Assembly: GCA_964016885.1 (NCBI GenBank)
Contig: OZ024741.1
Span: 61,752,001-61,816,000 of the forward strand
Length of the DNA stretch: 64,000 bases
Source of the DNA: Eledone cirrhosa
Taxonomy: Eukaryota
Reading direction: 5' to 3'
The notes beneath the pieces are model-generated. The model saw nothing but the letters and a program-made list of their open reading frames with translations, searched no databases and had not been told where the DNA came from. The number at the start of each line of letters is the position of its first letter. Positions within the stretch are counted from its first letter, which is position 1. A program made the position numbers and the translations under genes. Positions 19,240-64,000 of this stretch are shown one piece after another.

Positions 19240-21835
19240 TAGCTTAGTTGTCAGCGACCTCACGGTCAAAACTAGACGAACCCGGAAACAGAGGCCAACC
19301 TGGAGAAGAAAGATCTGGAAGCTGAAAGTCCCCTCAACCAGTAACAGATTTTAAAGATATTTTACTCAACGCCTACGACAGTAAAGAAGAACAGATACAG
19401 ACATTTAATGTAGAAGAGAACTGGGACTTCCTAAAAAATAATTTACTAGAGGCGACGGATGAGGTCTGTGGCTGGAGTAAGACCTCAAGCAGGAGGAGAG
19501 TGACTTGGTGGTGGAACAATAAGGTAGATGAAGCAGTTAAGGCCAAGAGACAGGCATGGAAAGAATGGAAGAACGGGGGGAGCAGGGTACATTACATAGA
19601 GACCAAGAGGGAAGCTAGGCGACAAGTATACTTAGCTAGGAGGGAAGCAGAGAAGAGAAAATTCAAGCATGTTTTACAACGTGAGGACCAGAAACAGGAG
19701 GTATTCAAGATTGCGAGGCAGTGTGTCAGAGATAGTTGCGATGTCATTGGAGAGAAGTGTATCTGGAATGATAAAGGTGAGCTTGCCCTCACAAGTGCTG
19801 AGAAGAAAGATGCATGGAAGAGTCATTATGATAGATTACTAAATGAGGAGAATGCATGGGAAGAAGAGACCCTACCCCAAGTAGACCCTATAGAGGGACC
19901 AGCAGTACAAGTCAGCAGCAGCGTAGTAAGTAAGGCAATCAAAGATATGAAGATGGGGAAGGCAACCGGTCCATCGGGTATAGCTGCCGAGATGCTGAAG
20001 GCATCTGGGTCTGTAGGTCACACTATAACCACACGTATCGTTAACCAGGTAATACTAGAAGGGGCCATACCAAAAGATTGGTGCAGTAGCATCATTGTCA
20101 ACTGCTACAAAGGTAAAGGCGATGCACTAGATAGAGGAAACTATAGAGGTATAAAGTTGATGGACCAGGTCATGAAAGTAACAGAAAGAGTTATAGCACA
20201 GCTGATTAGGGACCGGGTGAATATAGACGAGATGCAATTTGGGTTTGTACCAGGAAGAGGCACCACTGATGCCCTCTTCCTTGTGAGGCAATTACAGGAA
20301 AAGTACCTAGCTAAAAGTAAGCCACTCTACTTGACATTTGTGGACCTTGAGAAAGCCTTTGACAGAGTTCCTAGTGCTGTAATCTGGTGGGCTCTTAGAA
20401 AACTAGGAGTAGATGAATGGCTTGTGAAAGCGGTACAAGCCATGTATAGGGGAGCAGTCAGCAAAGTTAGGATTAGCAATGAGTATAGCGAGGAATTTAG
20501 CGTACAGGTTGGGGTCCACCAGGGCTCTGTTCTTAGCCCTCTCCTGTTCATCATAGTCCTGCAGGCAATAACGGAGGAGTTTAAGACCGGATGCCCATGG
20601 GAACTCCTGTATGCTGATGACCTCGCACTCATAGCTGAATCTATGGTAGAACTAGAGAATAAATTCCAAACCTGGAAGCAGGGACTAGAGAGAAAGGGTC
20701 TCAAAGTCAACATGACAAAGACTAAGGTCCTTGTAAGTAGACGAGAAAACAGAACCCAGATCCCCTCAGGGAAATGGCCTTGCTCAGTATGTAGGAAAGG
20801 TGTAGGTAGGAACTCCATTCTCTGCCCCAAATGCAAACAATGGGTACACAAGACATGTAGCGGGATCTCAGGAAGCTTAATTAAGAATGTAGGAGTCACA
20901 TGCAGCAGCTGTGCTGAAACAGCAAGCAGCAAACAGCCACAGGAAACAAGTACCACCAATCTCTGGGAGGGCCCTGTAGAAACAGTAGACAGCTTCTGCT
21001 ACCTAGGTGACCGAATTAGCAGCGGAGGTGGGTGTTCAGAAAGTACAATAACTAGGGTAAGAACGGGATCGAAGAAGTTTAGGGAACTACTACCACTGCT
21101 AGCTGCAAAAGGCTTCTCCCTCAGAATGAAAGGCAGACTGTATGATGCGTGTATCCGAACAGCGATGTTGCATGGTAGTGAGACCTGGGCGCTGAAGGTG
21201 GAAGACTTACGTAGATTAGAGAGAAACGAAGCCTGCATGCTCCGATGGATGTGTAACAGTAATATACGTGAACGACAAAGCATAAATGAATTGAGAGAGA
21301 GACTGAGCATAAGAGGAATCAAATGCTGTGTGCAGGAGAGGCGGTTGCGCTGGTATGGACATGCGATGCGTATGAAGGATGACAGCTGCATAAAAAGGTG
21401 CAGAGCACTAGAAGTTGATGGAAACCGCGGAGTGGGGAGACCCAAGATGACCTGGGATGAGGTGATAAAAGCCGACCTTACCCAATTAAACCTCTCAAAG
21501 ACAATGACACACGACCGTGACTTCTGGCGTCACGCAGTAATACAGAGTACCCGACCTCCCATGGGTACATGCTGAAGCATATAAACAATATGCCCCCACA
21601 CCCCCCAACGCAAGGTGGTCGTGGAGGTGCCACGGCAAAAAAAGCACCCAGCCCACACTGTAAAAGAGGTTGGTGTTAGGAAGGGCATCCAGCTGTAGAA
21701 ATCAAGCCAGATCAGTTCCTGTATGAGCAAGGCATGGTCAGTCGACCAGACACTGCACACAACAGGACAACCTGTCTAACCCATGCTAGCGTGGAAGAAC
21801 GGACGTAAAACGGTGATGATGATGATGATGATAAT
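19240..21835 (+). mobile_element. RTE-clade LINE, family B, 5'-truncated (lacks endonuclease)
   Basis: Long RT ORF, 3'UTR and GGACGTAAAACG(GTGAT)(GAT)n tail; begins at the end of the EN region. Confidence 0.95.
19500..21575 (+). CDS. Retrotransposon ORF remnant: reverse transcriptase (YADD at 20610-20621), PHD-like zinc finger, RTE C-terminal domain
   Basis: 691-aa open frame with QFGFVPGRGTTDA, FVDLEKAFDRV, GVHQGSVLSPLLF, YADD, FCYLG, RRLRWYGH and GRPKMTW. Start is not the native one; upstream part is disrupted. Confidence 0.88.
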   Translation: MTWWWNNKVDEAVKAKRQAWKEWKNGGSRVHYIETKREARRQVYLARREAEKRKFKHVLQREDQKQEVFKIARQCVRDSCDVIGEKCIWNDKGELALTSAEKKDAWKSHYDRLLNEENAWEEETLPQVDPIEGPAVQVSSSVVSKAIKDMKMGKATGPSGIAAEMLKASGSVGHTITTRIVNQVILEGAIPKDWCSSIIVNCYKGKGDALDRGNYRGIKLMDQVMKVTERVIAQLIRDRVNIDEMQFGFVPGRGTTDALFLVRQLQEKYLAKSKPLYLTFVDLEKAFDRVPSAVIWWALRKLGVDEWLVKAVQAMYRGAVSKVRISNEYSEEFSVQVGVHQGSVLSPLLFIIVLQAITEEFKTGCPWELLYADDLALIAESMVELENKFQTWKQGLERKGLKVNMTKTKVLVSRRENRTQIPSGKWPCSVCRKGVGRNSILCPKCKQWVHKTCSGISGSLIKNVGVTCSSCAETASSKQPQETSTTNLWEGPVETVDSFCYLGDRISSGGGCSESTITRVRTGSKKFRELLPLLAAKGFSLRMKGRLYDACIRTAMLHGSETWALKVEDLRRLERNEACMLRWMCNSNIRERQSINELRERLSIRGIKCCVQERRLRWYGHAMRMKDDSCIKRCRALEVDGNRGVGRPKMTWDEVIKADLTQLNLSKTMTHDRDFWRHAVIQSTRPPMGTC

Positions 21836-25070: not shown

Positions 25071-28035
25071 ATCATCATCATCATCATCATCATCAACGTT
25101 TAACGTCCGTGTTCCACGCTTGCATGGGTTTGGACGGGGGTAGTCCCACTTGAGGCAAGAGTGATTGTCTTGCTCGCATAGGACTGTCTGGCAGGTTTTC
25201 TACAGTTGGATGCCCTTCCTAACACCAACCACATTTACAGTGTGGGTCTGGGAGGTTTTTACCGTGTTGCCTACACGGCCACATTACAGCGTGGACTGTG
25301 TGTTTTTTTGTCGTGACACCTACACGATCTCATTTGTTTCGGCCTCGATGGCGCGGCACCAACATAACTTTACATAGAACGGGGTGGTGTGGATGGGGTG
25401 GGGGTGGGGGTGGTGGGACGGGGTGTATTTTGTTAGAGATGCCTACTGGCTGGAGTAGGTTTTACTATATATTTAGGTAAGGCGGGTCTTCTCTGTTACT
25501 GAGTACCGCCAAAGGTCTCGGTCCAGTGACATTGGCTTGGAGAGGTGTAAGTGTGTGATGTCGGAGTTTATCAGCTCGTCCCAGGTTTTTCTAGGTCTGC
25601 CTATTCCGTGACTACCATCTATCTTTATTGCCCTGCACTTTGTTATACAGCTATCGACTTTCATGCGAATCACGTGTCCATACCAACGTAGCCTTCTCTC
25701 GAGTAAACAACATCTGATCCCTCTTATCTCTAATTTTTTCCTTAGTTCGTTTATGCTTTGCCGTTCACGTATATTACTGTTACACATCCAGCGGAGCATG
25801 CAAGCTTCGTTCCTCTCTAGTCTGCGTATATCCTCTGCACACAATGCCCAGGTCTCACTGCCATGCAGCATTGCTGTTCGTATGCAGGCATCGTACAACC
25901 TGCCTTTCATTTTTAGGGAGAACCCTTTAGCAGCTAATAGTGGTATAAGCTCTCTGAACTTTTTCCAACCAGTTCTGACTCTAGCTACAGTACTTTCAGA
26001 GCACCCTCCCCCACTGCTGATTTTATCGCCCAGGTAACGGAAGCTGTCCACTATTTCTATAGAACCCTCTGCGCAATTGAAAGAGCTAGTATTTTGTGGG
26101 CACTTGCTGCTACTTATTGCACCAGAACACCGGCCACATGTAAAATCTATGTTCTTAGTTAGCTTACCTGTGATCCCACTACATCTTTTATGCACCCATA
26201 CTTTGCATTTAGGACATAAAATGGAGTTTCTACCTACGCCTTTCCTACACACCGAGCACGACCATTTCCCAGAAGGGACCGCCGCCTTGTTTTCTTTCCT
26301 ACAAACTAGTACTTTGGTCTTAGCCAGGTTAATTTTAAGTCCTTTTGACTCTAGGCCGTACTTCCATGTTTGGAATTTCTTCTCTAGCTCGGCCATTGAT
26401 TCCGCTATGAGTGGCAGGTCGTCTGCGTATAGGAGTTCCCATGGGCAGCCTGTCTTGAACTCCTCTGTTATAGCCTGAAGGGCAATAATAAATAGTAGGG
26501 GGCTGAGAACAGAGCCCTGATGGACGCCAACTTTTACGCTAAACTCTTCACTATATTCGTTGTTAATTCTAACCTTGCTGACTGTTTCTTTATACATGGC
26601 TTGTATAGCCCTCACAAGCCATTCGTCAACGCCTAGTTTTCTAAGAGCCCACCAGATAATGGAGCGGGGGACTCTGTCGAAGGCTTTCTCCAAGTCGACA
26701 AAAGCTAAGTAGAGGGGTTTACCTTTAGCTAGGTACTTCTCCTGTAGTTGTCGTACTATGAAAAGAGCGTCTGTGGTACTTTTGCCTGACACAAACTGTC
26801 TTTCTCCCATTTATTCTTCTCATTTAGTAGCCTTTCATAGTGACACTTCCAAGCTACCTTCTTATCAGCGTCGGTGATGGCAAGTGTGCCATCGTCGTTT
26901 AGTACACACTTCTCCCTGGCAATATCACGGTTTTCCTTGACGCATTGCCTAGCAATCCTGAACACCTCACGTTTTTGGTCATCGCGTTGTAGAACATGCT
27001 TGAACTTTCTTTCCTCAGCTTCCCTTCTTGCTAAGTACACTTGTCTCCTAGCTTCCCTCCTGGCCACTTGATAGTCTTCTCTACTTCCCCCATCCCGCCA
27101 TACTTTCCAAGCCTGCTTTTTGGCCTTAATTGACCCCTCCACCTTACTGTTCCACCACCATGTTACTCTCCTCCTGCCTACAGGCCTGCTCCAGCCACAG
27201 ACTTCGTCTGTCGCCAACAGCAGGTTTGCTTTCAGAAATTCCCACTCTCCCTCTGTATTGTCCGACTCTAAATGTTCTTCCTTAATGTCGAAAGAATCAA
27301 GTAATATGCTTTGAAATTTATTCCTGGCTGTGGGGTCCTTTAGCTTCCATATTTTTCTCCTGAGGATAGTCCTCTTCTGCTGTCGAGTACGTCTCGTCCT
27401 GACTATGAGGTCGCTAATTATCAGTCTATGTTGGGAGGTGCATTCTTCATGGGGGAGGGATTTAGTGTTTACAACAGACACTCTGTCACGTCTTCTGGTA
27501 AGGATATAATCTACCTGGCTTGTGTGTTCCCCGGATCTATAGGTGATCAGGTGACTGTCACGTTTTTTGAAGTTAGTGTTACAGATAGTTAGGTTATTTG
27601 CATCACAGAATTCCAGGATTCTGGAGCCTTCCTCATTTCTAGTACCAAACCCATAGCCTCCATGGATTTCGTCGTAGCCGTCACAATGTTGTCCAACGTG
27701 ACCATTTAGGTCGCCTGCGATAATTATATAGTCACTGTCGGATATTTGGGAGGTAGTTAGCATCAGTGTCTCATAGAATCTGTCTTTTATAGTGCCGGGC
27801 AGTCCGGATTGGGGTGCGTACGCAGATATTACTGTCACCGTAGTTCTATTGAGGACAAGTCGTATTTTAATTATTCTGTCGTTCACTCTATTTACGTCTA
27901 TTATCTTATCTGCCCACTTTTCTGCTACCATGATTCCTACTCCACCCAGTCCATCGTCGTTTCCCACCCAGAAAAGCTTATAACATCGTTTTTTACCCTC
28001 AATGTACCTAGCAGACCCACCCCTCCACCTGGTCT
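25071..28035 (-). mobile_element. RTE family A copy with APE endonuclease and RT, internal deletion, 5'-truncated
   Basis: ORF 26756-27967 has GVGI, SAYAPQ, AGDLNGHVG and QVDYIL (APE); ORF 25473-26810 has RT with YADD and PHD-like finger; (GAT)n tail at 25071-25094. Confidence 0.96.
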
Positions 28036-28040
28036 CTTAT

Positions 28041-45985: not shown

Positions 45986-46282
45986 ATTGACTGTGCCATT
46001 AATATTCTATAGATGTGATATTGACATATGACTATAGACAGTGTCATAAATATTCTATAGATGTGATATTGACATATGACTATCCACAGTGTCATTAATA
46101 TTCTATAGATGTGATATTGACATATGACTATCCACAGTGTCATTAATATTCTATAGATGTGATATTGACATATGACTATCCACAGTGTCATTAATATTCT
46201 ATAGATGTGATATTGACATATGACTATCCACAGTGTCATTAATATTCTATAGATGTGATATTTACATATGACTATCCACAGT

Positions 46283-47250
46283 CCAATCTCTGGGAGGGCT
46301 CTGTAGAAACAGTAGACAGCTTCTGCTACCTAGGTGACCGAATTAGCAGCGGAGGTGGGTGTTCAGAAAGTACAATAACTAGGGTAAGAACGGGATCGAT
46401 GAAGTTTAGGGAACTACTACCACTGCTAGCTGCAAAAAGCTTCTCCCTCAGAATGAAAGGCAGACTGTATGATGCGGGTATCCGAACAACAATGTTACAT
46501 GGTAGTGAGACCTGTGCGCTGAAGGTGGAAGACTTACGTAGATTAGAGAGAAACGAAGCCTGCATGCTCCGATGGATGTGTAATAGTAATATACGTGAAC
46601 GACAAAGCATAAATGAATTGAGAGAGAGACTGAGCATAAGAGGAATCAAATGCTGTGTGCAGGAGAGGCGGTTGCGCTGGTATGGACATGTGATGCGTAT
46701 GAAGGATGACAGCTGCATAAAAAGGTGCAGAGCACTAGAAGATGATGGAAACCGCGGAGTGGGGAGACCCAAGATGACCTGGGATGAGGTGATAAAAGCC
46801 GACCTTACCCAATTACACCTCTCAAAGGCAATGACACACGACCGTGACCTCTGGCGTCACGCAGCAAAACAGAGTACCCGACCTCCCATGGGTACAAGCT
46901 GAAGCATATAGACAATATGCCCCCACAACCCCCACCGCAAGATGGTCGTGGAGGTGCCACGGCAAAAAAGCACCCAGCCCACGCTGTAAAGTGGACGTGT
47001 AGGCGCCACGAAAAAGCACCCAGCACTCACTGTAAAGTGGACGTGTAAGCGCCACAAGGAAAGCACCCAGCACTCACTGTAAATGAGGTTGGTGTTAGGA
47101 AGGGAATCCAGCTGTAGAAATCAAGCCAAATCAGTTCCTGTATGAGCAAGGCATGGTCGGCCGACCAGACACTGCCCACAAGAGGACAACCCGTCTAACC
47201 CATGCTAGCGTGGAAAAACGGACGTAAAACGGTGATGATGATGATGATGA
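46283..47250 (+). mobile_element. 968-bp 5'-truncated RTE family B insertion in satellite, copy 1
   Basis: Homologous to 20956-21830; flanked by duplicated (A)CAGT; (GAT)n tail. Confidence 0.97.
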
Positions 47251-50200
47251 CAGTGTCATTAATATTCTATAGATGTGATATTGACATATGACTATAGACA
47301 GTGTCATTAATATTCTATAGATGTGATATTGACATATGACTATAGACAGTGTCATTAATATTCTATAGATGTGATATTGACATATGACTATCCACAGTGC
47401 CATTAATATTCTATAGATGTGATATTGACATATGACTATCCACAGTGTCATTAATATTCTATAGATGTGATATTGACATATGACTATCCACAGTGCCATT
47501 AATATTCTATAGATGTAATATTGACATATGACTATAGACAGTGTCATTAATATTCTATAGATGTGATATTGACATATGACTATAGACAGTGCCATTAATA
47601 TTCTATAGATGTGATATTGACATATGACTATAGACTGTATCATTAATATTCTATAGATGTGATATTGACATATGACTATCCACAGTGTCATTAATATTCT
47701 ATAGATGTGATATTGACATATGACTATAGACAGTGTCATTAATATTCTATAGATGTGATATTGACATATGACTATCCACAGTGCCATTAATATTCTATAG
47801 ATGTGATATTGACATATGACTATCCACAGTGTCATTAATATTCTATAGATGTGATATTGACATATGGCTATAGACAGTGTCATTAATATTCTATAGATGT
47901 GATATTGACATATGACTATCCACAGTGCCTTTAACATTCTATAGATGTGATATTGATATATGGCTATCCACAGTGTCATTAATATTCTATAGATGTGATA
48001 TTGACATATGACTATCCCCAGTGTCATTAATATTCTATAGATGTGATATTGACATATGGCTATAGACAGTGTCATTAATATTCTATAGATGTGATATTGA
48101 CATATGACTATCCACAGTGCCTTTAATATTCTATAGATGTGATGTTGATATATGGCTATCCACAGTGTCATTAATATTCTATAGATGTGATATTGACATA
48201 TGACTATCCACAGTGCCTTTAATATTCTATAGATGTGATATTGATATATGGCTATCCACAGTGTCATTAATATTCTATAGATGTGATATTGACATATGAC
48301 TATCCCCAGTGTCATTAATATTCTATAGATGTGATATTGACACATGACTATCCACAGTGTCATTAATATTCTATAGATGTGATATTGACATATGACTATA
48401 GACAGTGTCATTAATATTCTATAGATGTGATATTGACATATGACTATCCACAGTGTCATTAATATTCTATAGATGTGATATTGACATATGACTATCCACA
48501 GTGCCATTAATATTCTATAGATGTGATATTGACATATGACTATAGACAGTGCCATTAATATTCTATAGATGTGATATTGACATATGACTATAGACTGTAT
48601 AATTAATATTCTATAGATGTGATATTGACATATGACTATCCACAGTGTCATTAATATTCTATAGATGTGATATTGACATATGACTATAGACAGTGTCATT
48701 AATGTTCTATAGATGTGATATTGACATATGACTATCCACAGTGCCATTAATATTCTATAGATGTGATATTGACATATGACTATCCACAGTGTCATTAATA
48801 TTCTATAGATGTGATATTGACATTTGGCTATAGACAGTGTCATTAATATTCTATAGATGTGATATTGACATATGACTATCCACAGTGCCTTTAATATTCT
48901 ATAGATGTGATATTGATATATGGCTATCCACAGTGTCATTAATATTCTATAGATGTGATATTGACATATGACTATCCCCAGTGTCATTAATATTCTATAG
49001 ATGTGATATTGACATATGACTATCCACAGTGTCATTAATATTCTATAGATGTGATATTGACACATGACTATCCACAGTGTCATTAATATTCTATAGATGT
49101 GATATTGACATATGACTATAGACAGTGTCATTAATATTCTATAGATGTGATATTGACATATGACAATCCACAGTGCCTTAAATATTCTATAGATGTGATA
49201 TTGACATATGGCTATCCACAGTGCCTTAAATATTCTATATATGTGATATTGACATATGACTATCCGCAGTGTCATTAATATTCTATAGATGTGATATTGA
49301 CATATGACTATCCACAGTGCCATTTATATTCTATAGATGTCATATTGACATATGACTATCCACAGTGTCATTAATATTCTATAGATGTGATATTGATATA
49401 TGACTATCCACAGTGTCATTAATATTCTATAGATGTGATATTGACATATGCCTATCCACAGTGTCATTAATATTCTATAGATGTGATATTGACATATGAC
49501 TATAGACAGTGTCATTAATATTCTATAGATGTGATATTGACATATGACTATAGACAGTGTCATTAATATTCTATAGATGTGATATTGACATATGACTATA
49601 GACAGTGTCATTAATATTCTATAGATGTGATATTGACGTATGACTATCCACAGTGTCATTAATATTCTATAGATGTGATATTGACATATGACTATAGACA
49701 GTGTCATTAATATTCTATAGATGTGATATTGACATATGACTATCCACAGTGTTATTAATATTCTATAGATGTGATATTGACATATGACTATAGACAGTGT
49801 CATTAATATTCTATAGCTGTCATATTGACATATGACTATAGACTGTGTCATTAATATTCTATAGATGTGATATTGACATATGCCTATCCACAGTGCCATT
49901 AATATTCTATAGATGTGATATTGACATATGACTATAGACTGTGTCATTAATATTCTATAGATGTGATATTGACATATGCCTATCCACAGTGTCATTAATA
50001 TTCTATAGATGTGATATTGACATATGCCTATCCACAGTGTCATTAATATTCTATAGATGTGATATTGACATATGACTATCCACAGTGTCATTAATATTCT
50101 ATAGATGTGATATTGACATATGACTATAGACTGTGTCATTAATATTCTATAGATGTGATATTGACGTATGACTATAGACAGTGTCATTAATATTCTATAG

Positions 50201-53200
50201 ATGTGATATTGACGTATGACTATAGACAGTGTCATTAATATTCTATAGATGAGATATTGACATATGACTATAGACAGTGTCATTAATATTCTATAGATGT
50301 GATATTGACATATGACTATCCACAGTGTCATTAATATTCTATAGATGTGATATTGACATATGACTATCCACAGTGTCATTAATATTCTATAGCTGTCATA
50401 TTGACATAGGACTATAGACAGTGTCATTAATATTCTATAGATGTGATATTGACATATGACTATAGACAGTGTCATTAATATTCTATAGATGTGATATTGA
50501 CATATGACTATCCACAGTGTCATTAATATTCTATAGCTGTCATATTGACATATGACTATAGACTGTGTCATTAATATTCTATAGATGTGATATAGACATA
50601 TGACTATAGACTGTGTCATTAATATTCTATAGATGTGATATTGACATATGACTATAGACAGTGTCATTAATATTCTATAGATGTGATATTGACATATGAC
50701 TATAGACAGTGTCATTAATATTCTATAGATGTGATATTGACATATGACTATCCACAGTATCATTAATATTCTATAGATGTGATATTGACGTATGACTATA
50801 GACAGTGTCATTAATATTCTATAGATGTGATATTGACGTATGACTATCCACAGTGTCATTAATATTCTATAGATGTGATATTGACATATGACTATAGACT
50901 GTGCCATTAATATTCTATAGATGTGATATTGACATATGACTATAGACTGTGTTATTAATATTCTATAGATGTGATATTGACATATGACTATGGACAGTGT
51001 CATTAATATTCTATAGATGTGATATTGACATATGACTATCCACAGTGTCATTAATATTCTATAGATGTGATATTGACATATGACTATAAACAGTGTCATT
51101 AATATTCTATAGATGTGATATTGACATATGACTATAGACAGTGTCATTAATATTCTATAGATGTGATATTGACATCTGACTATAGACAGTGTCAGTAATA
51201 TTCTATAGATGTGATATTGACAAATGACTATCCACAGTGCCATTAATATTCTATAGATGTGATATTGACATATGACAATATATAGTATCATTAATATTCT
51301 ATAGATGTGATATTGACATCTGACTATCCATAGTGTCATTAATATTCTATAGATGTGATATTGACATATGACTATCCACAGTGTCATTAATATTCTATAG
51401 ATGTGATATTGACATATGACTATAGACAGTGTCATTAATATTCTATAGATGTGATATTGACGTATGACTATAGACAGTGTCATTAATATTCTATAGATGT
51501 GATATTGACATATGACTATCCACAGTGTCATTAATATTCTATAGATGTGATATTGACATCTGACTATCCATAGTGTCATTAATATTCTATAGATGTGATA
51601 TTGACATATGACTATATACAGTGTCATTAATATTCTATAGATGTGATATTGACATCTGACTATCCATAGTGTCATTAATATTCTATAGATGTGATACTGA
51701 CATATGACTATAGACAGTGTCATTAATATTCTATAGATGTGATATTGACATATGGCTATAGACAGTGTCATTAATATTCTATAGATGTGATATTGACATC
51801 TAACTATCCATAGTGTCATTAATATTCTATAGATGTGATATTGACATATGACTATAGACAGTGTCATTAATATTCTATAGATGTGATATTGACATATGAC
51901 TATAGACAGTGTCATTAATATTCTATAGATGTGATATTGACATATGACTATCCACAGTGTCATTAATATTCTATAGATGTGATATTGACATATGACTATA
52001 GACAGTGTCATTAATATTCTATAGATGTGATATTGACATCTGACTATCCACAGTGTCATTAATATTCTATAGATGTGATATTGACGTATGACTATAGACA
52101 GTGTCATTAATATTCTATAGATGTGATATTGACATCTAACTATCCATAGTGTCATTAATATTCTATAGATGTGATATTGACATATGACTATAGACAGTGT
52201 CATTAATATTCTATAGATGTGATATTGACATATGACTATAGACAGTGTCATTAATATTCTATAGATGTGATATTGACATATGACTATCCACAGTGTCATT
52301 AATATTCTATAGATGTGATATTGACGTATGACTATAGACCGTGTCATTAATATTCTATAGATGTGATATTGACGTATGACTATAGACAGTGTCATTAATA
52401 TTCTATAGATGTGATATTGACGTATGACTATAGACAGTGTCATTAATATTCTATAGATGTGATATTGACATATGACTATAGACTGTATCATTAATATTCT
52501 ATAGATGTGATATTGACATATGACTATCCACAGTGTCATTAATACTCTATAGATGTGATATTGACATATGACTATAGACAGTGTCATTAATATTCTATAG
52601 ATGTGATATTGACGTATGACTATAGACCGTGTCATTAATATTCTATAGATGTGATATTGACGTATGACTATAGACAGTGTCATTAATATTCTATAGATGT
52701 GATATTGACATATGACTATCCACAGTATCATTAATATTCTATAGATGTGATATTGACGTATGACTATAGACCGTGTCATTAATATTCTATAGATGTGATA
52801 TTGACGTATGACTATAGACAGTGTCATTAATATTCTATAGATGTGATATTGACGTATGACTATAGACAGTGTCATTAATATTCTATGGATGTGATATTGA
52901 CGTATGACTATAGACAGTGTCATTAATATTCTATAGATGTGATATTGACGTATGACTATAGACAGTGTCATTAATATTCTATAGATGTGATATTGACATA
53001 TGACTATCCACAGTATCATTAATATTCTATAGATGTGATATTGACGTATGACTATAGACCGTGTCATTAATATTCTATAGATGTGATATTGACGTATGAC
53101 TATAGACAGTGTCATTAATATTCTATAGATGTGATATTGACATATGACTATCCACAGTGTCATTAATATTCTATAGATGTGATATTGACATATGACTATC

Positions 53201-53350
53201 CACAGTGTCATTAATATTCTATAGATGTGATATTGACATATGACTATCCACAGTGTCATTAATATTCTATAGATGTGATATTTACATATGACTATCCACA
53301 GTGTCATTAATATTCTATAGATGTGATATTGACATATGACTATCCACAGT

Positions 53351-54318
53351 CCAATCTCTGGGAGGGCTCTGTAGAAACAGTAGACAGCTTCTGCTACCTA
53401 GGTGACCGAATTAGCAGCGGAGGTGGGTGTTCAGAAAGTACAATAACTAGGGTAAGAACGGGATCGATGAAGTTTAGGGAACTACTACCACTGCTAGCTG
53501 CAAAAAGCTTCTCCCTCAGAATGAAAGGCAGACTGTATGATGCGGGTATCCGAACAACAATGTTACATGGTAGTGAGACCTGTGCGCTGAAGGTGGAAGA
53601 CTTACGTAGATTAGAGAGAAACGAAGCCTGCATGCTCCGATGGATGTGTAATAGTAATATACGTGAACGACAAAGCATAAATGAATTGAGAGAGAGACTG
53701 AGCATAAGAGGAATCAAATGCTGTGTGCAGGAGAGGCGGTTGCGCTGGTATGGAAATGTGATGCGTATGAAGGATGACAGCTGCATAAAAAGGTGCAGAG
53801 CACTAGAAGATGATGGAAACCGCGGAGTGGGGAGACCCAAGATGACCTGGGATGAGGTGATAAAAGCCGACCTTACCCAATTACACCTCTCAAAGGCAAT
53901 GACACACGACCGTGACCTCTGGCGTCACGCAGCAAAACAGAGTACCCGACCTCCCATGGGTACAAGCTGAAGCATATAGACAATATGCCCCCACAACCCC
54001 CACCGCAAGGTGGTCGTGGAGGTGCCACGGCAAAAAAGCACCCAGCCCACGCTGTAAAGTGTACGTGTAGGCGCCACGAAAAAGCACCCAGCACTCACTG
54101 TAAAGTGGACGTGTAAGCGCCACAAGGAAAGCACCCAGCACTCACTGTAAATGAGGTTGGTGTTAGGAAGGGAATCCAGCTGTAGAAATCAAGCCAAATC
54201 AGTTCCTGTATGAGCAAGGCATGGTCGGCCGACCAGACACTGCCCACAAGAGGACAACCCGTCTAACCCATGCTAGCGTGGAAAAACGGACGTAAAACGG
54301 TGATGATGATGATGATGA
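53351..54318 (+). mobile_element. 968-bp 5'-truncated RTE family B insertion in satellite, copy 2
   Basis: Same 5' breakpoint, tail length and flanks as copy 1. Confidence 0.97.
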
Positions 54319-57300
54319 CAGTGTCATTAATATTCTATAGATGTGATATTGACATATGACTATAGACAGTGTCATTAATATTCTATAGATGTGATATTGA
54401 CATATGACTATAGACAGTGTCATTAATATTCTATAGATGTGATATTGACATATGACTATCCACAGTGCCATTAATATTCTATAGATGTGATATTGACATA
54501 TGACTATCCACAGTGTCATTAATATTCTATAGATGTGATATTGATATATGACTATCCACAGTGCCATTAATATTCTATAGATGTAATATTGACATATGAC
54601 TATAGACAGTGTCATTAATATTCTATAGATGTGATATTGACATATGACTATAGACAGTGCCATTAATATTCTATAGATGTGATATTGACATATGACTATA
54701 GACTGTATCATTAATATTCTATAGATGTGATATTGACATATGACTATCCACAGTGTCATTAATATTCTATAGATGTGATATTGACATATGACTATAGACA
54801 GTGTCATTAATATTCTATAGATGTGATATTGACATATGACTATCCACAGTGCCATTAATATTCTATAGATGTGATATTGACATATGACTATCCACAGTGT
54901 CATTAATATTCTATAGATGTGATATTGACATATGGCTATAGACAGTGTCATTAATATTCTATAGATGTGATATTGACATATGACTATCCACAGTGCCTTT
55001 AACATTCTATAGATGTGATATTGATATATGGCTATCCACAGTGTCATTAATATTCTATAGATGTGATATTGACATATGACTATCCCCAGTGTCATTAATA
55101 TTCTATAGATGTGATATTAGACATATGGCTATAGACAGTGTCATTAATATTCTATAGATGTGATATTGACATATGACTATCCACAGTGCCATTAATATTC
55201 TATAGATGTGATATTGACATATGACTATCCACAGTGTCATTAATATTCTATAGATGTGATATTGACATTTGGCTATAGACAGTGTCATTAATATTCTATA
55301 GATGTGATATTGACATATGACTATCCACAGTGCCTTTAATATTCTATAGATGTGATATTGATATATGGCTATCCACAGTGTCATTAATATTCTATAGATG
55401 TGATATTGACATATGACTATCCCCAGTGTCATTAATATTCTATAGATGTGATATTGACATATGACTATCCACAGTGTCATTAATATTCTATAGATGTGAT
55501 ATTGACACATGACTATCCACAGTGTCATTAATATTCTATAGATGTGATATTGACATATGACTATAGACAGTGTCATTAATATTCTATAGATGTGATATTG
55601 ACATATGACAATCCACAGTGCCTTAAATATTCTATAGATGTGATATTGACATATGGCTATCCACAGTGCCTTAAATATTCTATATATGTGATATTGACAT
55701 ATGACTATCCGCAGTGTCATTAATATTCTATAGATGTGATATTGACATATGACTATCCACAGTGCCATTTATATTCTATAGATGTCATATTGACATATGA
55801 CTATCCACAGTGTCATTAATATTCTATAGATGTGATATTGATATATGACTATCCACAGTGTCATTAATATTCTATAGATGTGATATTGACATATGCCTAT
55901 CCACAGTGTCATTAATATTCTATAGATGTGATATTGACATATGACTATAGACAGTGTCATTAATATTCTATAGATGTGATATTGACATATGACTATAGAC
56001 AGTGTCATTAATATTCTATAGATGTGATATTGACATATGACTATAGACAGTGTCATTAATATTCTATAGATGTGATATTGACGTATGACTATCCACAGTG
56101 TCATTAATATTCTATAGATGTGATATTGACATATGACTATAGACAGTGTCATTAATATTCTATAGATGTGATATTGACATATGACTATCCACAGTGTTAT
56201 TAATATTCTATAGATGTGATATTGACATATGACTATAGACAGTGTCATTAATATTCTATAGCTGTCATATTGACATATGACTATAGACTGTGTCATTAAT
56301 ATTCTATAGATGTGATATTGACATATGCCTATCCACAGTGCCATTAATATTCTATAGATGTGATATTGACATATGACTATAGACTGTGTCATTAATATTC
56401 TATAGATGTGATATTGACATATGCCTATCCACAGTGTCATTAATATTCTATAGATGTGATATTGACATATGCCTATCCACAGTGTCATTAATATTCTATA
56501 GATGTGATATTGACATATGACTATCCACAGTGTCATTAATATTCTATAGATGTGATATTGACATATGACTATAGACTGTGTCATTAATATTCTATAGATG
56601 TGATATTGACGTATGACTATAGACAGTGTCATTAATATTCTATAGATGTGATATTGACGTATGACTATAGACAGTGTCATTAATATTCTATAGATGAGAT
56701 ATTGACATATGACTATAGACAGTGTCATTAATATTCTATAGATGTGATATTGACATATGACTATCCACAGTGTCATTAATATTCTATAGATGTGATATTG
56801 ACATATGACTATCCACAGTGTCATTAATATTCTATAGCTGTCATATTGACATAGGACTATAGACAGTGTCATTAATATTCTATAGATGTGATATTGACAT
56901 ATGACTATAGACAGTGTCATTAATATTCTATAGATGTGATATTGACATATGACTATCCACAGTGTCATTAATATTCTATAGCTGTCATATTGACATATGA
57001 CTATAGACTGTGTCATTAATATTCTATAGATGTGATATAGACATATGACTATAGACTGTGTCATTAATATTCTATAGATGTGATATTGACATATGACTAT
57101 AGACAGTGTCATTAATATTCTATAGATGTGATATTGACATATGACTATAGACAGTGTCATTAATATTCTATAGATGTGATATTGACATATGACTATCCAC
57201 AGTATCATTAATATTCTATAGATGTGATATTGACGTATGACTATAGACAGTGTCATTAATATTCTATAGATGTGATATTGACGTATGACTATCCACAGTG

Positions 57301-59795
57301 TCATTAATATTCTATAGATGTGATATTGACATATGACTATAGACTGTGCCATTAATATTCTATAGATGTGATATTGACATATGACTATAGACTGTGTTAT
57401 TAATATTCTATAGATGTGATATTGACATATGACTATGGACAGTGTCATTAATATTCTATAGATGTGATATTGACATATGACTATCCACAGTGTCATTAAT
57501 ATTCTATAGATGTGATATTGACATATGACTATAAACAGTGTCATTAATATTCTATAGATGTGATATTGACATATGACTATAGACAGTGTCATTAATATTC
57601 TATAGATGTGATATTGACATCTGACTATAGACAGTGTCAGTAATATTCTATAGATGTGATATTGACAAATGACTATCCACAGTGCCATTAATATTCTATA
57701 GATGTGATATTGACATATGACAATATATAGTATCATTAATATTCTATAGATGTGATATTGACATCTGACTATCCATAGTGTCATTAATATTCTATAGATG
57801 TGATATTGACATATGACTATCCACAGTGTCATTAATATTCTATAGATGTGATATTGACATATGACTATAGACAGTGTCATTAATATTCTATAGATGTGAT
57901 ATTGACGTATGACTATAGACAGTGTCATTAATATTCTATAGATGTGATATTGACATATGACTATCCACAGTGTCATTAATATTCTATAGATGTGATATTG
58001 ACATCTGACTATCCATAGTGTCATTAATATTCTATAGATGTGATATTGACATATGACTATATACAGTGTCATTAATATTCTATAGATGTGATATTGACAT
58101 CTGACTATCCATAGTGTCATTAATATTCTATAGATGTGATACTGACATATGACTATAGACAGTGTCATTAATATTCTATAGATGTGATATTGACATATGG
58201 CTATAGACAGTGTCATTAATATTCTATAGATGTGATATTGACATCTAACTATCCATAGTGTCATTAATATTCTATAGATGTGATATTGACATATGACTAT
58301 AGACAGTGTCATTAATATTCTATAGATGTGATATTGACATATGACTATAGACAGTGTCATTAATATTCTATAGATGTGATATTGACATATGACTATCCAC
58401 AGTGTCATTAATATTCTATAGATGTGATATTGACATATGACTATAGACAGTGTCATTAATATTCTATAGATGTGATATTGACATCTGACTATCCACAGTG
58501 TCATTAATATTCTATAGATGTGATATTGACGTATGACTATAGACAGTGTCATTAATATTCTATAGATGTGATATTGACATCTAACTATCCATAGTGTCAT
58601 TAATATTCTATAGATGTGATATTGACATATGACTATAGACAGTGTCATTAATATTCTATAGATGTGATATTGACATATGACTATAGACAGTGTCATTAAT
58701 ATTCTATAGATGTGATATTGACATATGACTATCCACAGTGTCATTAATATTCTATAGATGTGATATTGACGTATGACTATAGACCGTGTCATTAATATTC
58801 TATAGATGTGATATTGACGTATGACTATAGACAGTGTCATTAATATTCTATAGATGTGATATTGACGTATGACTATAGACAGTGTCATTAATATTCTATA
58901 GATGTGATATTGACATATGACTATAGACTGTATCATTAATATTCTATAGATGTGATATTGACATATGACTATCCACAGTGTCATTAATACTCTATAGATG
59001 TGATATTGACATATGACTATAGACAGTGTCATTAATATTCTATAGATGTGATATTGACGTATGACTATAGACCGTGTCATTAATATTCTATAGATGTGAT
59101 ATTGACGTATGACTATAGACAGTGTCATTAATATTCTATAGATGTGATATTGACATATGACTATCCACAGTATCATTAATATTCTATAGATGTGATATTG
59201 ACGTATGACTATAGACCGTGTCATTAATATTCTATAGATGTGATATTGACGTATGACTATAGACAGTGTCATTAATATTCTATAGATGTGATATTGACGT
59301 ATGACTATAGACAGTGTCATTAATATTCTATGGATGTGATATTGACGTATGACTATAGACAGTGTCATTAATATTCTATAGATGTGATATTGACGTATGA
59401 CTATAGACAGTGTCATTAATATTCTATAGATGTGATATTGACATATGACTATCCACAGTATCATTAATATTCTATAGATGTGATATTGACGTATGACTAT
59501 AGACCGTGTCATTAATATTCTATAGATGTGATATTGACGTATGACTATAGACAGTGTCATTAATATTCTATAGATGTGATATTGACATATGACTATCCAC
59601 AGTGTCATTAATATTCTATAGATGTGATATTGACATATGACTATCCACAGTGTCATTAATATTCTATAGATGTGATATTGACATATGACTATCCACAGTG
59701 TCATTAATATTCTATAGATGTGATATTTACATATGACTATCCACAGTGTCATTAATATTCTATAGATGTGATATTGACATATGACTATCCACAGT

Positions 59796-60763
59796 CCAAT
59801 CTCTGGGAGGGCTCTGTAGAAACAGTAGACAGCTTCTGCTACCTAGGTGACCGAATTAGCAGCGGAGGTGGGTGTTCAGAAAGTACAATAACTAGGGTAA
59901 GAACGGGATCGATGAAGTTTAGGGAACTACTACCACTGCTAGCTGCAAAAAGCTTCTCCCTCAGAATGAAAGGCAGACTGTATGATGCGGGTATCCGAAC
60001 AACAATGTTACATGGTAGTGAGACCTGTGCGCTGAAGGTGGAAGACTTACGTAGATTAGAGAGAAACGAAGCCTGCATGCTCCGATGGATGTGTAATAGT
60101 AATATACGTGAACGACAAAGCATAAATGAATTGAGAGAGAGACTGAGCATAAGAGGAATCAAATGCTGTGTGCAGGAGAGGCGGTTGCGCTGGTATGGAA
60201 ATGTGATGCGTATGAAGGATGACAGCTGCATAAAAAGGTGCAGAGCACTAGAAGATGATGGAAACCGCGGAGTGGGGAGACCCAAGATGACCTGGGATGA
60301 GGTGATAAAAGCCGACCTTACCCAATTACACCTCTCAAAGGCAATGACACACGACCGTGACCTCTGGCGTCACGCAGCAAAACAGAGTACCCGACCTCCC
60401 ATGGGTACAAGCTGAAGCATATAGACAATATGCCCCCACAACCCCCACCGCAAGGTGGTCGTGGAGGTGCCACGGCAAAAAAGCACCCAGCCCACGCTGT
60501 AAAGTGTACGTGTAGGCGCCACGAAAAAGCACCCAGCACTCACTGTAAAGTGGACGTGTAAGCGCCACAAGGAAAGCACCCAGCACTCACTGTAAATGAG
60601 GTTGGTGTTAGGAAGGGAATCCAGCTGTAGAAATCAAGCCAAATCAGTTCCTGTATGAGCAAGGCATGGTCGGCCGACCAGACACTGCCCACAAGAGGAC
60701 AACCCGTCTAACCCATGCTAGCGTGGAAAAACGGACGTAAAACGGTGATGATGATGATGATGA
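59796..60763 (+). mobile_element. 968-bp 5'-truncated RTE family B insertion in satellite, copy 3
   Basis: Appears identical to copy 2; offset 6445 bp. Confidence 0.97.
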
Positions 60764-63700
60764 CAGTGTCATTAATATTCTATAGATGTGATATTGACAT
60801 ATGACTATAGACAGTGTCATTAATATTCTATAGATGTGATATTGACATATGACTATAGACAGTGTCATTAATATTCTATAGATGTGATATTGACATATGA
60901 CTATCCACAGTGCCATTAATATTCTATAGATGTGATATTGACATATGACTATCCACAGTGTCATTAATATTCTATAGATGTGATATTGATATATGACTAT
61001 CCACAGTGCCATTAATATTCTATAGATGTAATATTGACATATGACTATAGACAGTGTCATTAATATTCTATAGATGTGATATTGACATATGACTATAGAC
61101 AGTGCCATTAATATTCTATAGATGTGATATTGACATATGACTATAGACTGTATCATTAATATTCTATAGATGTGATATTGACATATGACTATCCACAGTG
61201 TCATTAATATTCTATAGATGTGATATTGACATATGACTATAGACAGTGTCATTAATATTCTATAGATGTGATATTGACATATGACTATCCACAGTGCCAT
61301 TAATATTCTATAGATGTGATATTGACATATGACTATCCACAGTGTCATTAATATTCTATAGATGTGATATTGACATATGGCTATAGACAGTGTCATTAAT
61401 ATTCTATAGATGTGATATTGACATATGACTATCCACAGTGCCTATAACATTCTATAGATGTGATATTGATATATGGCTATCCACAGTGTCATTAATATTC
61501 TATAGATGTGATATTGACATATGACTATCCCCAGTGTCATTAATATTCTATAGATGTGATATTAGACATATGGCTATAGACAGTGTCATTAATATTCTAT
61601 AGATGTGATATTGACATATGACTATCCACAGTGCCTTTAATATTCTATAGATGTGATATTGATATATGGCTATCCACAGTGTCATTAATATTCTATAGAT
61701 GTGATATTGACATATGACTATCCACAGTGCCTTTAATATTCTATAGATGTGATATTGATATATGGCTATCCACAGTGTCATTAATATTCTATAGATGTGA
61801 TATTGACATATGACTATCCCCAGTGTCATTAATATTCTATAGATGTGATATTGACACATGACTATCCACAGTGTCATTAATATTCTATAGATGTGATATT
61901 GACATATGACTATAGACAGTGTCATTAATATTCTATAGATGTGATATTGACATATGACTATCCACAGTGCCATTAATATTCTATAGATGTGATATTGACA
62001 TATGACTATAGACAGTGCCATTAATATTCTATAGATGTGATATTGACATATGACTATAGACTGTATCATTAATATTCTATAGATGTGATATTGACATATG
62101 ACTATCCACAGTGTCATTAATATTCTATAGATGTGATATTGACATATGACTATAGACAGTGTCATTAATGTTCTATAGATGTGATATTGACATATGACTA
62201 TCCACAGTGCCATTAATATTCTATAGATGTGATATTGACATATGACTATCCACAGTGTCATTAATATTCTATAGATGTGATATTGACATATGGCTATAGA
62301 CAGTGTCATTAATATTCTATAGATGTGATATTGACATATGACTATCCACAGTGCCTTTAATATTCTATAGATGTGATATTGATATATGGCTATCCACAGT
62401 GTCATTAATATTCTATAGATGTGATATTGACATATGACTATCCCCAGTGTCATTAATATTCTATAGATGTGATATTGACATATGACTATCCACAGTGTCA
62501 TTAATATTCTATAGATGTGATATTGACACATGACTATCCACAGTGTCATTAATATTCTATAGATGTGATATTGACATATGACTATAGACAGTGTCATTAA
62601 TATTCTATAGATGTGATATTGACATATGGCTATCCACAGTGCCTTAAATATTCTATAGATGTGATATTGACATATGACTATCCGCAGTGTCATTAATATT
62701 CTATAGATGTGATATTGACATATGACTATCCACAGTGCCATTTATATTCTATAGATGTCATATTGACATATGACTATCCACAGTGTCATTAATATTCTAT
62801 AGATGTGATATTGATATATGACTATCCACAGTGTCATTAATATTCTATAGATGTGATATTGACATATGCCTATCCACAGTGTCATTAATATTCTATAGAT
62901 GTGATATTGACATATGACTATCCACAGTGCCTTTAATATTCTATAGATGTGATATTGACATATGACTATAGACAGTGTCATTAATATTCTATAGATGTGA
63001 TATTGACATATGACTATAGACAGTGTCATTAATATTCTATAGATGTGATATTGACGTATGACTATCCACAGTGTCATTAATATTCTATAGATGTGATATT
63101 GACATATGACTATAGACAGTGTCATTAATATTCTATAGATGTGATATTGACATATGACTATCCACAGTGTCATTAATATTCTATAGCTGTCATATTGACA
63201 TATGACTATAGACTGTGTCATTAATATTCTATAGATGTGATATTGACATATGCCTATCCACAGTGCCATTAATATTCTATAGATGTGATATTGACATATG
63301 ACTATAGACAGTGTCATTAATATTCTATAGATGTGATATTGACATATGACTATCCACAGTGTCATTAATATTCTATAGCTGTCATATTGACATATGACTA
63401 TAGACTGTGTCATTAATATTCTATAGATGTGATATTGACATATGCCTATCCACAGTGTCATTAATATTCTATAGATGTGATATTGACATATGACTATCCA
63501 CAGTGTCATTAATATTCTATAGATGTGATATTGACATATGACTATAGACTGTGTCATTAATATTCTATAGATGTGATATTGACGTATGACTATAGACAGT
63601 GTCATTAATATTCTATAGATGTGATATTGACGTATGACTATAGACAGTGTCATTAATATTCTATAGATGAGATATTGACATATGACTATAGACAGTGTCA

Positions 63701-64000
63701 TTAATATTCTATAGATGTGATATTGACATATGACTATCCACAGTGTCATTAATATTCTATAGATGTGATATTGACATATGACTATCCACAGTGTCATTAA
63801 AATTCTATAGCTGTCATATTGACATAGGACTATAGACAGTGTCATTAATATTCTATAGATGTGATATTGACATATGACTATAGACAGTGTCATTAATATT
63901 CTATAGATGTGATATTGACATATGACTATCCACAGTGTCATTAATATTCTATAGCTGTCATATTGACATATCACTATAGACTGTGTCATTAATATTCTAT

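Follow-up and report, generated by a model that had tools for sequence, protein, structure and literature searches.

Three copies of one truncated LINE insertion in a single-locus 48-bp minisatellite of Eledone cirrhosa, most likely multiplied by successive tandem block duplications

Passenger retroelements in tandem arrays

Retroelements that were copied together with a surrounding tandem repeat have been described in human satellite DNA. In human alpha-satellite arrays, for example D2Z1 on chromosome 2, L1HS copies are mostly duplications of a single element; approximately three of them are present per D2Z1 array, typically in a peripheral position, and they are usable as tags of expansion, as stated in the available part of that report (10.1101/2024.09.24.614721). 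In the human Yq12 region, the Alu elements A1 and A2, as well as lineage-specific Alus, were shown to have expanded with DYZ repeat units (10.1101/2022.12.01.518658), and the Alu copies trace tandem duplications (10.1101/2024.09.24.614721; 10.1101/2022.12.01.518658), for which slippage, non-allelic recombination or conversion has been proposed in the sections accessible (10.1101/2022.12.01.518658). DYZ2/HSat1B represents a mature composite satellite with an AluY subunit, its fixed unit of ~2.5 kb extending over 14 Mb, according to the accessible text (10.1101/2022.12.01.518724). In Arabidopsis CEN178 arrays, register-preserving tandem duplications of 1-31 units were observed directly, again as given in the available portion of the source (10.1101/2025.06.02.657473). 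Less close cases are covered by PMC5932611 (tandem TE dimers), PMC4857426 (rye) and 10.1101/2021.07.12.452052, each available in part. A literature search, outside which most subscription journals and supplements fell, returned no work on the repeat described here or on cephalopod centromeric satellites.

The present locus is comparable to L1HS and Alu in human alpha satellite, in that the copies of one retroelement insertion arose as the tandem repeat around it was duplicated. In contrast to D2Z1, a megabase centromeric higher-order repeat (HOR), it is a 26-kb single-locus 48-bp minisatellite of an invertebrate, and it displays neither an HOR nor any indication of centromere function. It also resembles the Yq12 Alus, where insertion into a repeat unit was followed by expansion and contraction, although Yq12 encompasses tens of megabases of heterochromatin with copy numbers tracked across individuals, whereas a single assembly is considered here. 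As in DYZ2, a retroelement fragment lies within a tandemly repeated multi-kb block, but the three units are of unequal length, and the locus represents at most a first step towards a composite satellite. Gains and losses of whole monomers, mosaic duplications and local conversion between neighbours are shared with CEN178, which is centromeric and duplicates in steps of 1-31 units, whereas 114-127 units plus a LINE are involved here, outside any shown centromere. On this comparison, the process appears to be an ordinary and already described one, with the locus probably working in the manner of the human L1HS and Alu cases.

The array and its LINE copies

The window, i.e. the whole 64-kb stretch of DNA analysed here (positions 61,752,001-61,816,000 of the 416-Mb contig OZ024741.1, within an assembly of 3.0 Gb), was examined together with 150 kb downstream and 50 kb upstream, giving 264 kb in which the assembly contains no N; coordinates above 64000 continue the window numbering past its end. 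A tandem array of 48-bp monomers was found to extend from 45990 to ~71850 (~25.9 kb), comprising 478 monomers and three LINE copies, with 6, 127, 114 and 231 monomers in successive blocks from left to right. Its left edge at ~45990 is sharp, in agreement with the array edge reported in the preliminary description, and its right edge lies ~7.85 kb beyond the window end (~61,823,850 on the contig). When read to this right end, the array contained no fourth LINE copy, its last 11 kb being LINE-free. All 409 matches of the core 21-mer of the monomer in the assembly, and 431 of the 434 matches of a 17-mer, are located at this locus. With its 48-bp unit, kilobase-scale length (~25.9 kb) and one location in the assembly, the array corresponds to a minisatellite.

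All features are given on the plus strand. The left edge (45990..46282) consists of six monomers and the first ACAGT of the target site, and is followed by LINE copy 1 (46283..47249). Monomer block 1 (47250..53350; 127 monomers) starts with the duplicated ACAGT and ends with monomers resembling those of the left edge, and LINE copy 2 (53351..54317) separates it from monomer block 2 (54318..59795; 114 monomers, one of them of 49 bp), the head of which corresponds to block 3 and the tail to block 1. LINE copy 3 (59796..60762) precedes the LINE-free monomer block 3, which starts within the window (60763..64000), continues for ~7.85 kb past it and contains 231 monomers in total. The LINE-bearing units are referred to here as units 1, 2 and 3, with 127, 114 and an open-ended number of monomers, respectively.

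Each LINE copy is a 5'-truncated 3' end, encompassing the last 205 codons of an ORF, a 3' UTR with three ~46-bp repeats and a (GAT)n tail. The element measures 967 bp with an ACAGT target duplication, or 968 bp with CAGT, a target duplication inside a tandem array being definable only modulo 48 bp, so that 4-5 bp is the simplest reading. The 5' and 3' junctions are identical in all three copies (starts at 46283, 53351 and 59796), as the preliminary description had reported for the 5' truncation, the tail and the (A)CAGT duplication. Copies 2 and 3 exhibit no differences, while copy 1 differs from them at 3 of 968 sites. The changes were polarised against seven close relatives from elsewhere, selected as the best matches to the first 117 bases of the LINE, with 5-7 of the 7 informative per site; a derived change at 46942 proved private to copy 1, and two further derived changes are common to copies 2 and 3.

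The LINE sequence continues upstream of the shared 5' break in all seven relatives, and the break is therefore not a natural end of the element. Furthermore, six changes in 620 sites of the coding part are common to the three array copies and occur in none of the relatives examined. The 29-base junction between satellite and LINE occurs three times in the 3.0-Gb assembly, each time at this locus, and the variants among flanking monomers follow the same order from copy to copy. The three LINE copies, with their common 5' break, tail and target site, are one insertion multiplied, and the earlier proposal of a single insertion amplified together with its flanking 48-mers is borne out by the junction counts, the six common changes and the ordered flanks.

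The family is abundant: in the 264 kb, 18 matches, among them the three array copies, reach 150 bp and 85% identity. A longer relative, located ~25 kb upstream at 19326-21572, shares 96.8% identity over 709 bp and has an RVT_1 match (1e-32), while a more distant one (26759-28036) has an Exo_endo_phos_2 match; the (GAT)n tail is present in six of the seven relatives. The array piece (205 residues) had no Pfam match of its own. A family with an APE endonuclease and a reverse transcriptase, 5'-truncated copies, a simple-repeat tail and a short target duplication is characteristic of non-LTR LINEs; to judge from C-terminal motifs and the short-repeat tail, it probably belongs to the RTE clade. In Octopus vulgaris, RTE families are described as recently active in the available part of one report (PMC13282606).

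Several further features of the family were observed. In the 3' UTR of the array copies (46943-47083, and the homologous sites of copies 2 and 3), one extra ~46-bp repeat is present relative to five of the seven aligned relatives. The longer family copy, when followed over 19326-21831, contains a 749-codon open stretch in which the RVT_1 match is followed by a PHD-finger-like match below the Pfam cut-off; in a relative at 25476-26810, such a match lies above the cut-off. A PHD finger behind a reverse transcriptase domain may be unusual.

Block structure and order of events

The LINE-to-LINE periods of 7068 and 6445 bp given in the preliminary description were recomputed exactly as multiples of the monomer plus the LINE, i.e. 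967+5+127x48 for the first and 967+5+114x48+1 for the second. The 3984-bp blocks 49324-53307 and 55769-59752, previously described as identical, were confirmed to be so (no mismatches), and they form part of an even longer exact repeat, in which 48705-54998 equals 55150-61443 (6294 bp). At a lag of 6445, identity extends over 6486 bp (48705-55190) and is broken once, by a mismatch at 54999, a site occupied by T in units 1 and 2 and by A in unit 3. The earlier claim of a recent multi-kb tandem amplification is supported. Comparison of unit 1 with unit 2 revealed 112 identical monomers, 2 differing and 13 missing from unit 2, while units 1 and 3 have 94 identical and 23 differing monomers with 13 gaps, and no exact common run above 832 bp. 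The head of unit 2 bears marks of unit 3, and one rare monomer type, present at the left edge, is otherwise found only directly before LINE copies 2 and 3.

One private change in copy 1 and two changes common to copies 2 and 3 are indicative of two nested events, and the order of insertion, first duplication and second duplication is inferred from these sequence comparisons. First, target-primed reverse transcription would have placed a 5'-truncated LINE six monomers in from the array's left edge. Monomers on the left side of the LINE would then have exchanged with monomers lying ~127 units to the right of it, duplicating ~7 kb and giving rise to units 1 and 3, which presumably diverged afterwards through point changes, monomer gains and losses, and conversion. 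Much later, a duplication of 6445 bp whose register was shifted by 13 monomers relative to the first would have generated unit 2, its head being derived from unit 3 and its tail from unit 1. The two tandem copies of this youngest duplication (48705-55149 and 55150-61594) together occupy 48705..61594 on the plus strand, and its crossover can be placed, by identity at lag 6445, in a 41-bp window inside monomers (55150..55190, plus strand).

Rough divergence values per lineage follow the same order: 1.0% (0.4-2.1%; 6 of 620) before the first duplication, which is an upper bound as some changes may stem from the source element, 0.15% (0.03-0.45%; from three changes) for the first duplication and 0.008% (0.0002-0.04%; from one change) for the second.

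The proposed route is a misaligned exchange or repair between out-of-register 48-mers; unequal crossover, slippage, template switching and break-induced or synthesis-dependent repair look alike in one sequence. Neither breakpoint uses the LINE, which is consequently regarded as a passenger. In the last block, the monomer lag of 39/40 reached a count of 15 against a null maximum of 10, a signal that corresponds to a single local duplication of 39-40 monomers (~1.9 kb) in the distal array (65132-68830). As this duplication is LINE-free, block duplication appears to proceed independently of the LINE. In summary, the array is read as a single-locus 48-bp minisatellite in which one truncated LINE insertion is present three times, most likely through two successive tandem block duplications via out-of-register 48-mers with the LINE as a passenger, to which we assign a probability of about 0.82.

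Alternative readings were weighed against this interpretation, the most serious being that only two LINE-bearing units, 1 and 3, exist at the real locus, the 6445-bp unit between them having arisen in the assembly through false duplication or through the joining of haplotypes differing in length. Such an artefact would be in keeping with the near-perfect youngest repeat (exact over 6294 bp, with one mismatch over 6486 bp), with a unit 2 that has no private monomer type and with reads that gave a family-wide signal and no junction-spanning piece. A run search returned nine sequencing runs, three of which (from one sample) contained more than 80% of the words. When three contig sets and one RAD run were compared with a LINE copy plus one monomer on each side, the summed depth was 10^4-10^6, a signal from the whole abundant LINE family; the locus was swamped by family-wide pieces, and among those listed none extended across the satellite/LINE junction. 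Array-private LINE alleles were mostly absent from contigs, but contigs drop rare variants; for the monomer bin, one run gave a summed depth of 4119, a value uncalibrated against single-copy sequence. A join, however, would need an exact overlap of only 41 bp, 13 monomers out of register, and units 1 and 3 have no exact run above 832 bp in common by which an overlap could be misled. At 54999, moreover, unit 2 equals unit 1 while being flanked by sites at which it equals unit 3 (the 54510 block and the 49-bp monomer), so that a pure chimera would presuppose three switches or an error in the consensus, and the 264 kb are free of N. A false duplication is accordingly considered unlikely, and even under it two real LINE copies remain.

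A further reading, close to that of the preliminary description, makes the array a border or starting point of a centromeric or pericentromeric higher-order satellite, with a LINE and ~120 monomers as its unit; it is now regarded as very improbable. Composite satellites with a retroelement part are known, as the accessible text on DYZ2/HSat1B states (10.1101/2022.12.01.518724), the region is repeat-rich with no host gene domain above the cut-off in 150 ORFs scanned, and ~48.8 of the 264 kb are tandem array. Nevertheless, an alpha-satellite-type HOR has a fixed multi-monomer unit repeated many times, whereas three unequal units (127, 114 and open-ended) were found here, with unequal block periods (7068, 6445 and ~1900 bp) and no monomer periodicity in unit 1 above shuffles (top count of 4, null maximum of 5 in 200 shuffles). 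Centromeric satellites extend over hundreds of kb to Mb or are abundant in the genome; the present array totals ~26 kb, its core 21-mer is confined to one locus as assembled, its last 11 kb lack a LINE, and neighbouring arrays are built of unrelated units. Neither the higher-order nor the centromeric or heterochromatic claim is therefore supported, and the locus is best regarded as real in the assembly and, on present sequence evidence, not centromeric. A minus-strand frame with a stop-free 16-residue repeat, open for up to 1357 codons, raised the further idea of a coding repeat, with stops arising from 1 of 61 distinct monomer variants versus 9 of 138 possible. This deficit is not significant (p = 0.19), the frame is interrupted by stops, three 49-bp monomers and the LINE copies, one such frame had no Pfam match, and no RNA run was among those listed in one DNA-directed run search; the idea, to which we attach hardly any likelihood, was rejected. 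Satellite-targeting LINEs exist, and in a family this abundant (18 matches, array copies included) a short non-autonomous element could in principle have inserted three times, independently and site-specifically, at the same position of the 48-mer. Three such insertions are effectively refuted by the sequence upstream of the break in 7/7 relatives, the six common changes absent from all relatives examined and kilobases of flanking monomer variants shared in order.

Neighbourhood and significance

Four older monomers, 80-90% similar to those of the array, were identified ~2.7-3.0 kb to its right, beyond microsatellites and a mariner-like element. They form two pairs (~61,826,510-61,826,900; L012:511-607 and L012:808-903) split by an intervening sequence that is presumably SINE-like, and are probable relics of an ancestral array; their survival suggests an old local repeat of which the left part expanded. 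The idea that the 48-mer arose from a dispersed element was considered and discarded, as diverged outlying monomers match this locus only (90 matches from 20 candidates, common words having been skipped).

Five further tandem arrays, 0.7-10 kb long and built of unrelated units, are present within these 264 kb, and no foreign inserts of at least 120 bp were found in four other nearby arrays. These neighbours include arrays of 34 bp x 311 (10.3 kb; L023:2495 to L024:2801), an unrelated 48 bp x 63 (3.0 kb; L025:3605-6610) and a CAA-rich 36 bp x 55 (2.0 kb; L018:5188-7152), as well as a strongly strand-biased (TGT/TGG)n array of ~6.8 kb with a 51-bp period (window 1-5258 plus L026:8486-10000), which has Thr/Asn/Pro-rich frames on the minus strand. 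A Helitron Rep/PIF1 helicase gene lies in pieces ~25 kb upstream of the window (L028:4737-8522), and the mariner-like element, which has terminal inverted repeats and an HTH_48 remnant and is dispersed in the genome, is located 200 bp to the right of the array end (L011:8050-8915). The 264 kb contain 931 stop-to-stop frames with a length of 70 aa or more; filtering retained 300, of which the 150 longest were compared with Pfam, a scan that would miss short exons. Matches were obtained for nine of these 150 frames (three Helitron, three mariner, one DUF6451 and two below the cut-off, namely Toddler and DUF3439), and none of the 150 had a host gene domain above the cut-off.

The locus likely has no function and reflects neutral repeat turnover, revealing neither a new mechanism nor a centromere. 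It represents a clean and fully readable case of a passenger insertion being copied by a tandem array, in which the steps can be ordered and one crossover narrowed down to 41 bp, and it might be used to mark repeat turnover or to test how accurate an assembly is. A more speculative reading, which we hold to be possible but improbable, is that of a composite satellite caught at birth, i.e. a private 48-bp minisatellite switching to a LINE-plus-monomer unit of 6.4-7 kb, still gaining units, with a LINE copy number that varies among living individuals. If this were true, the LINE tags would allow the rates of large-block exchange to be measured for a minisatellite outside the centromere in animals of this group.
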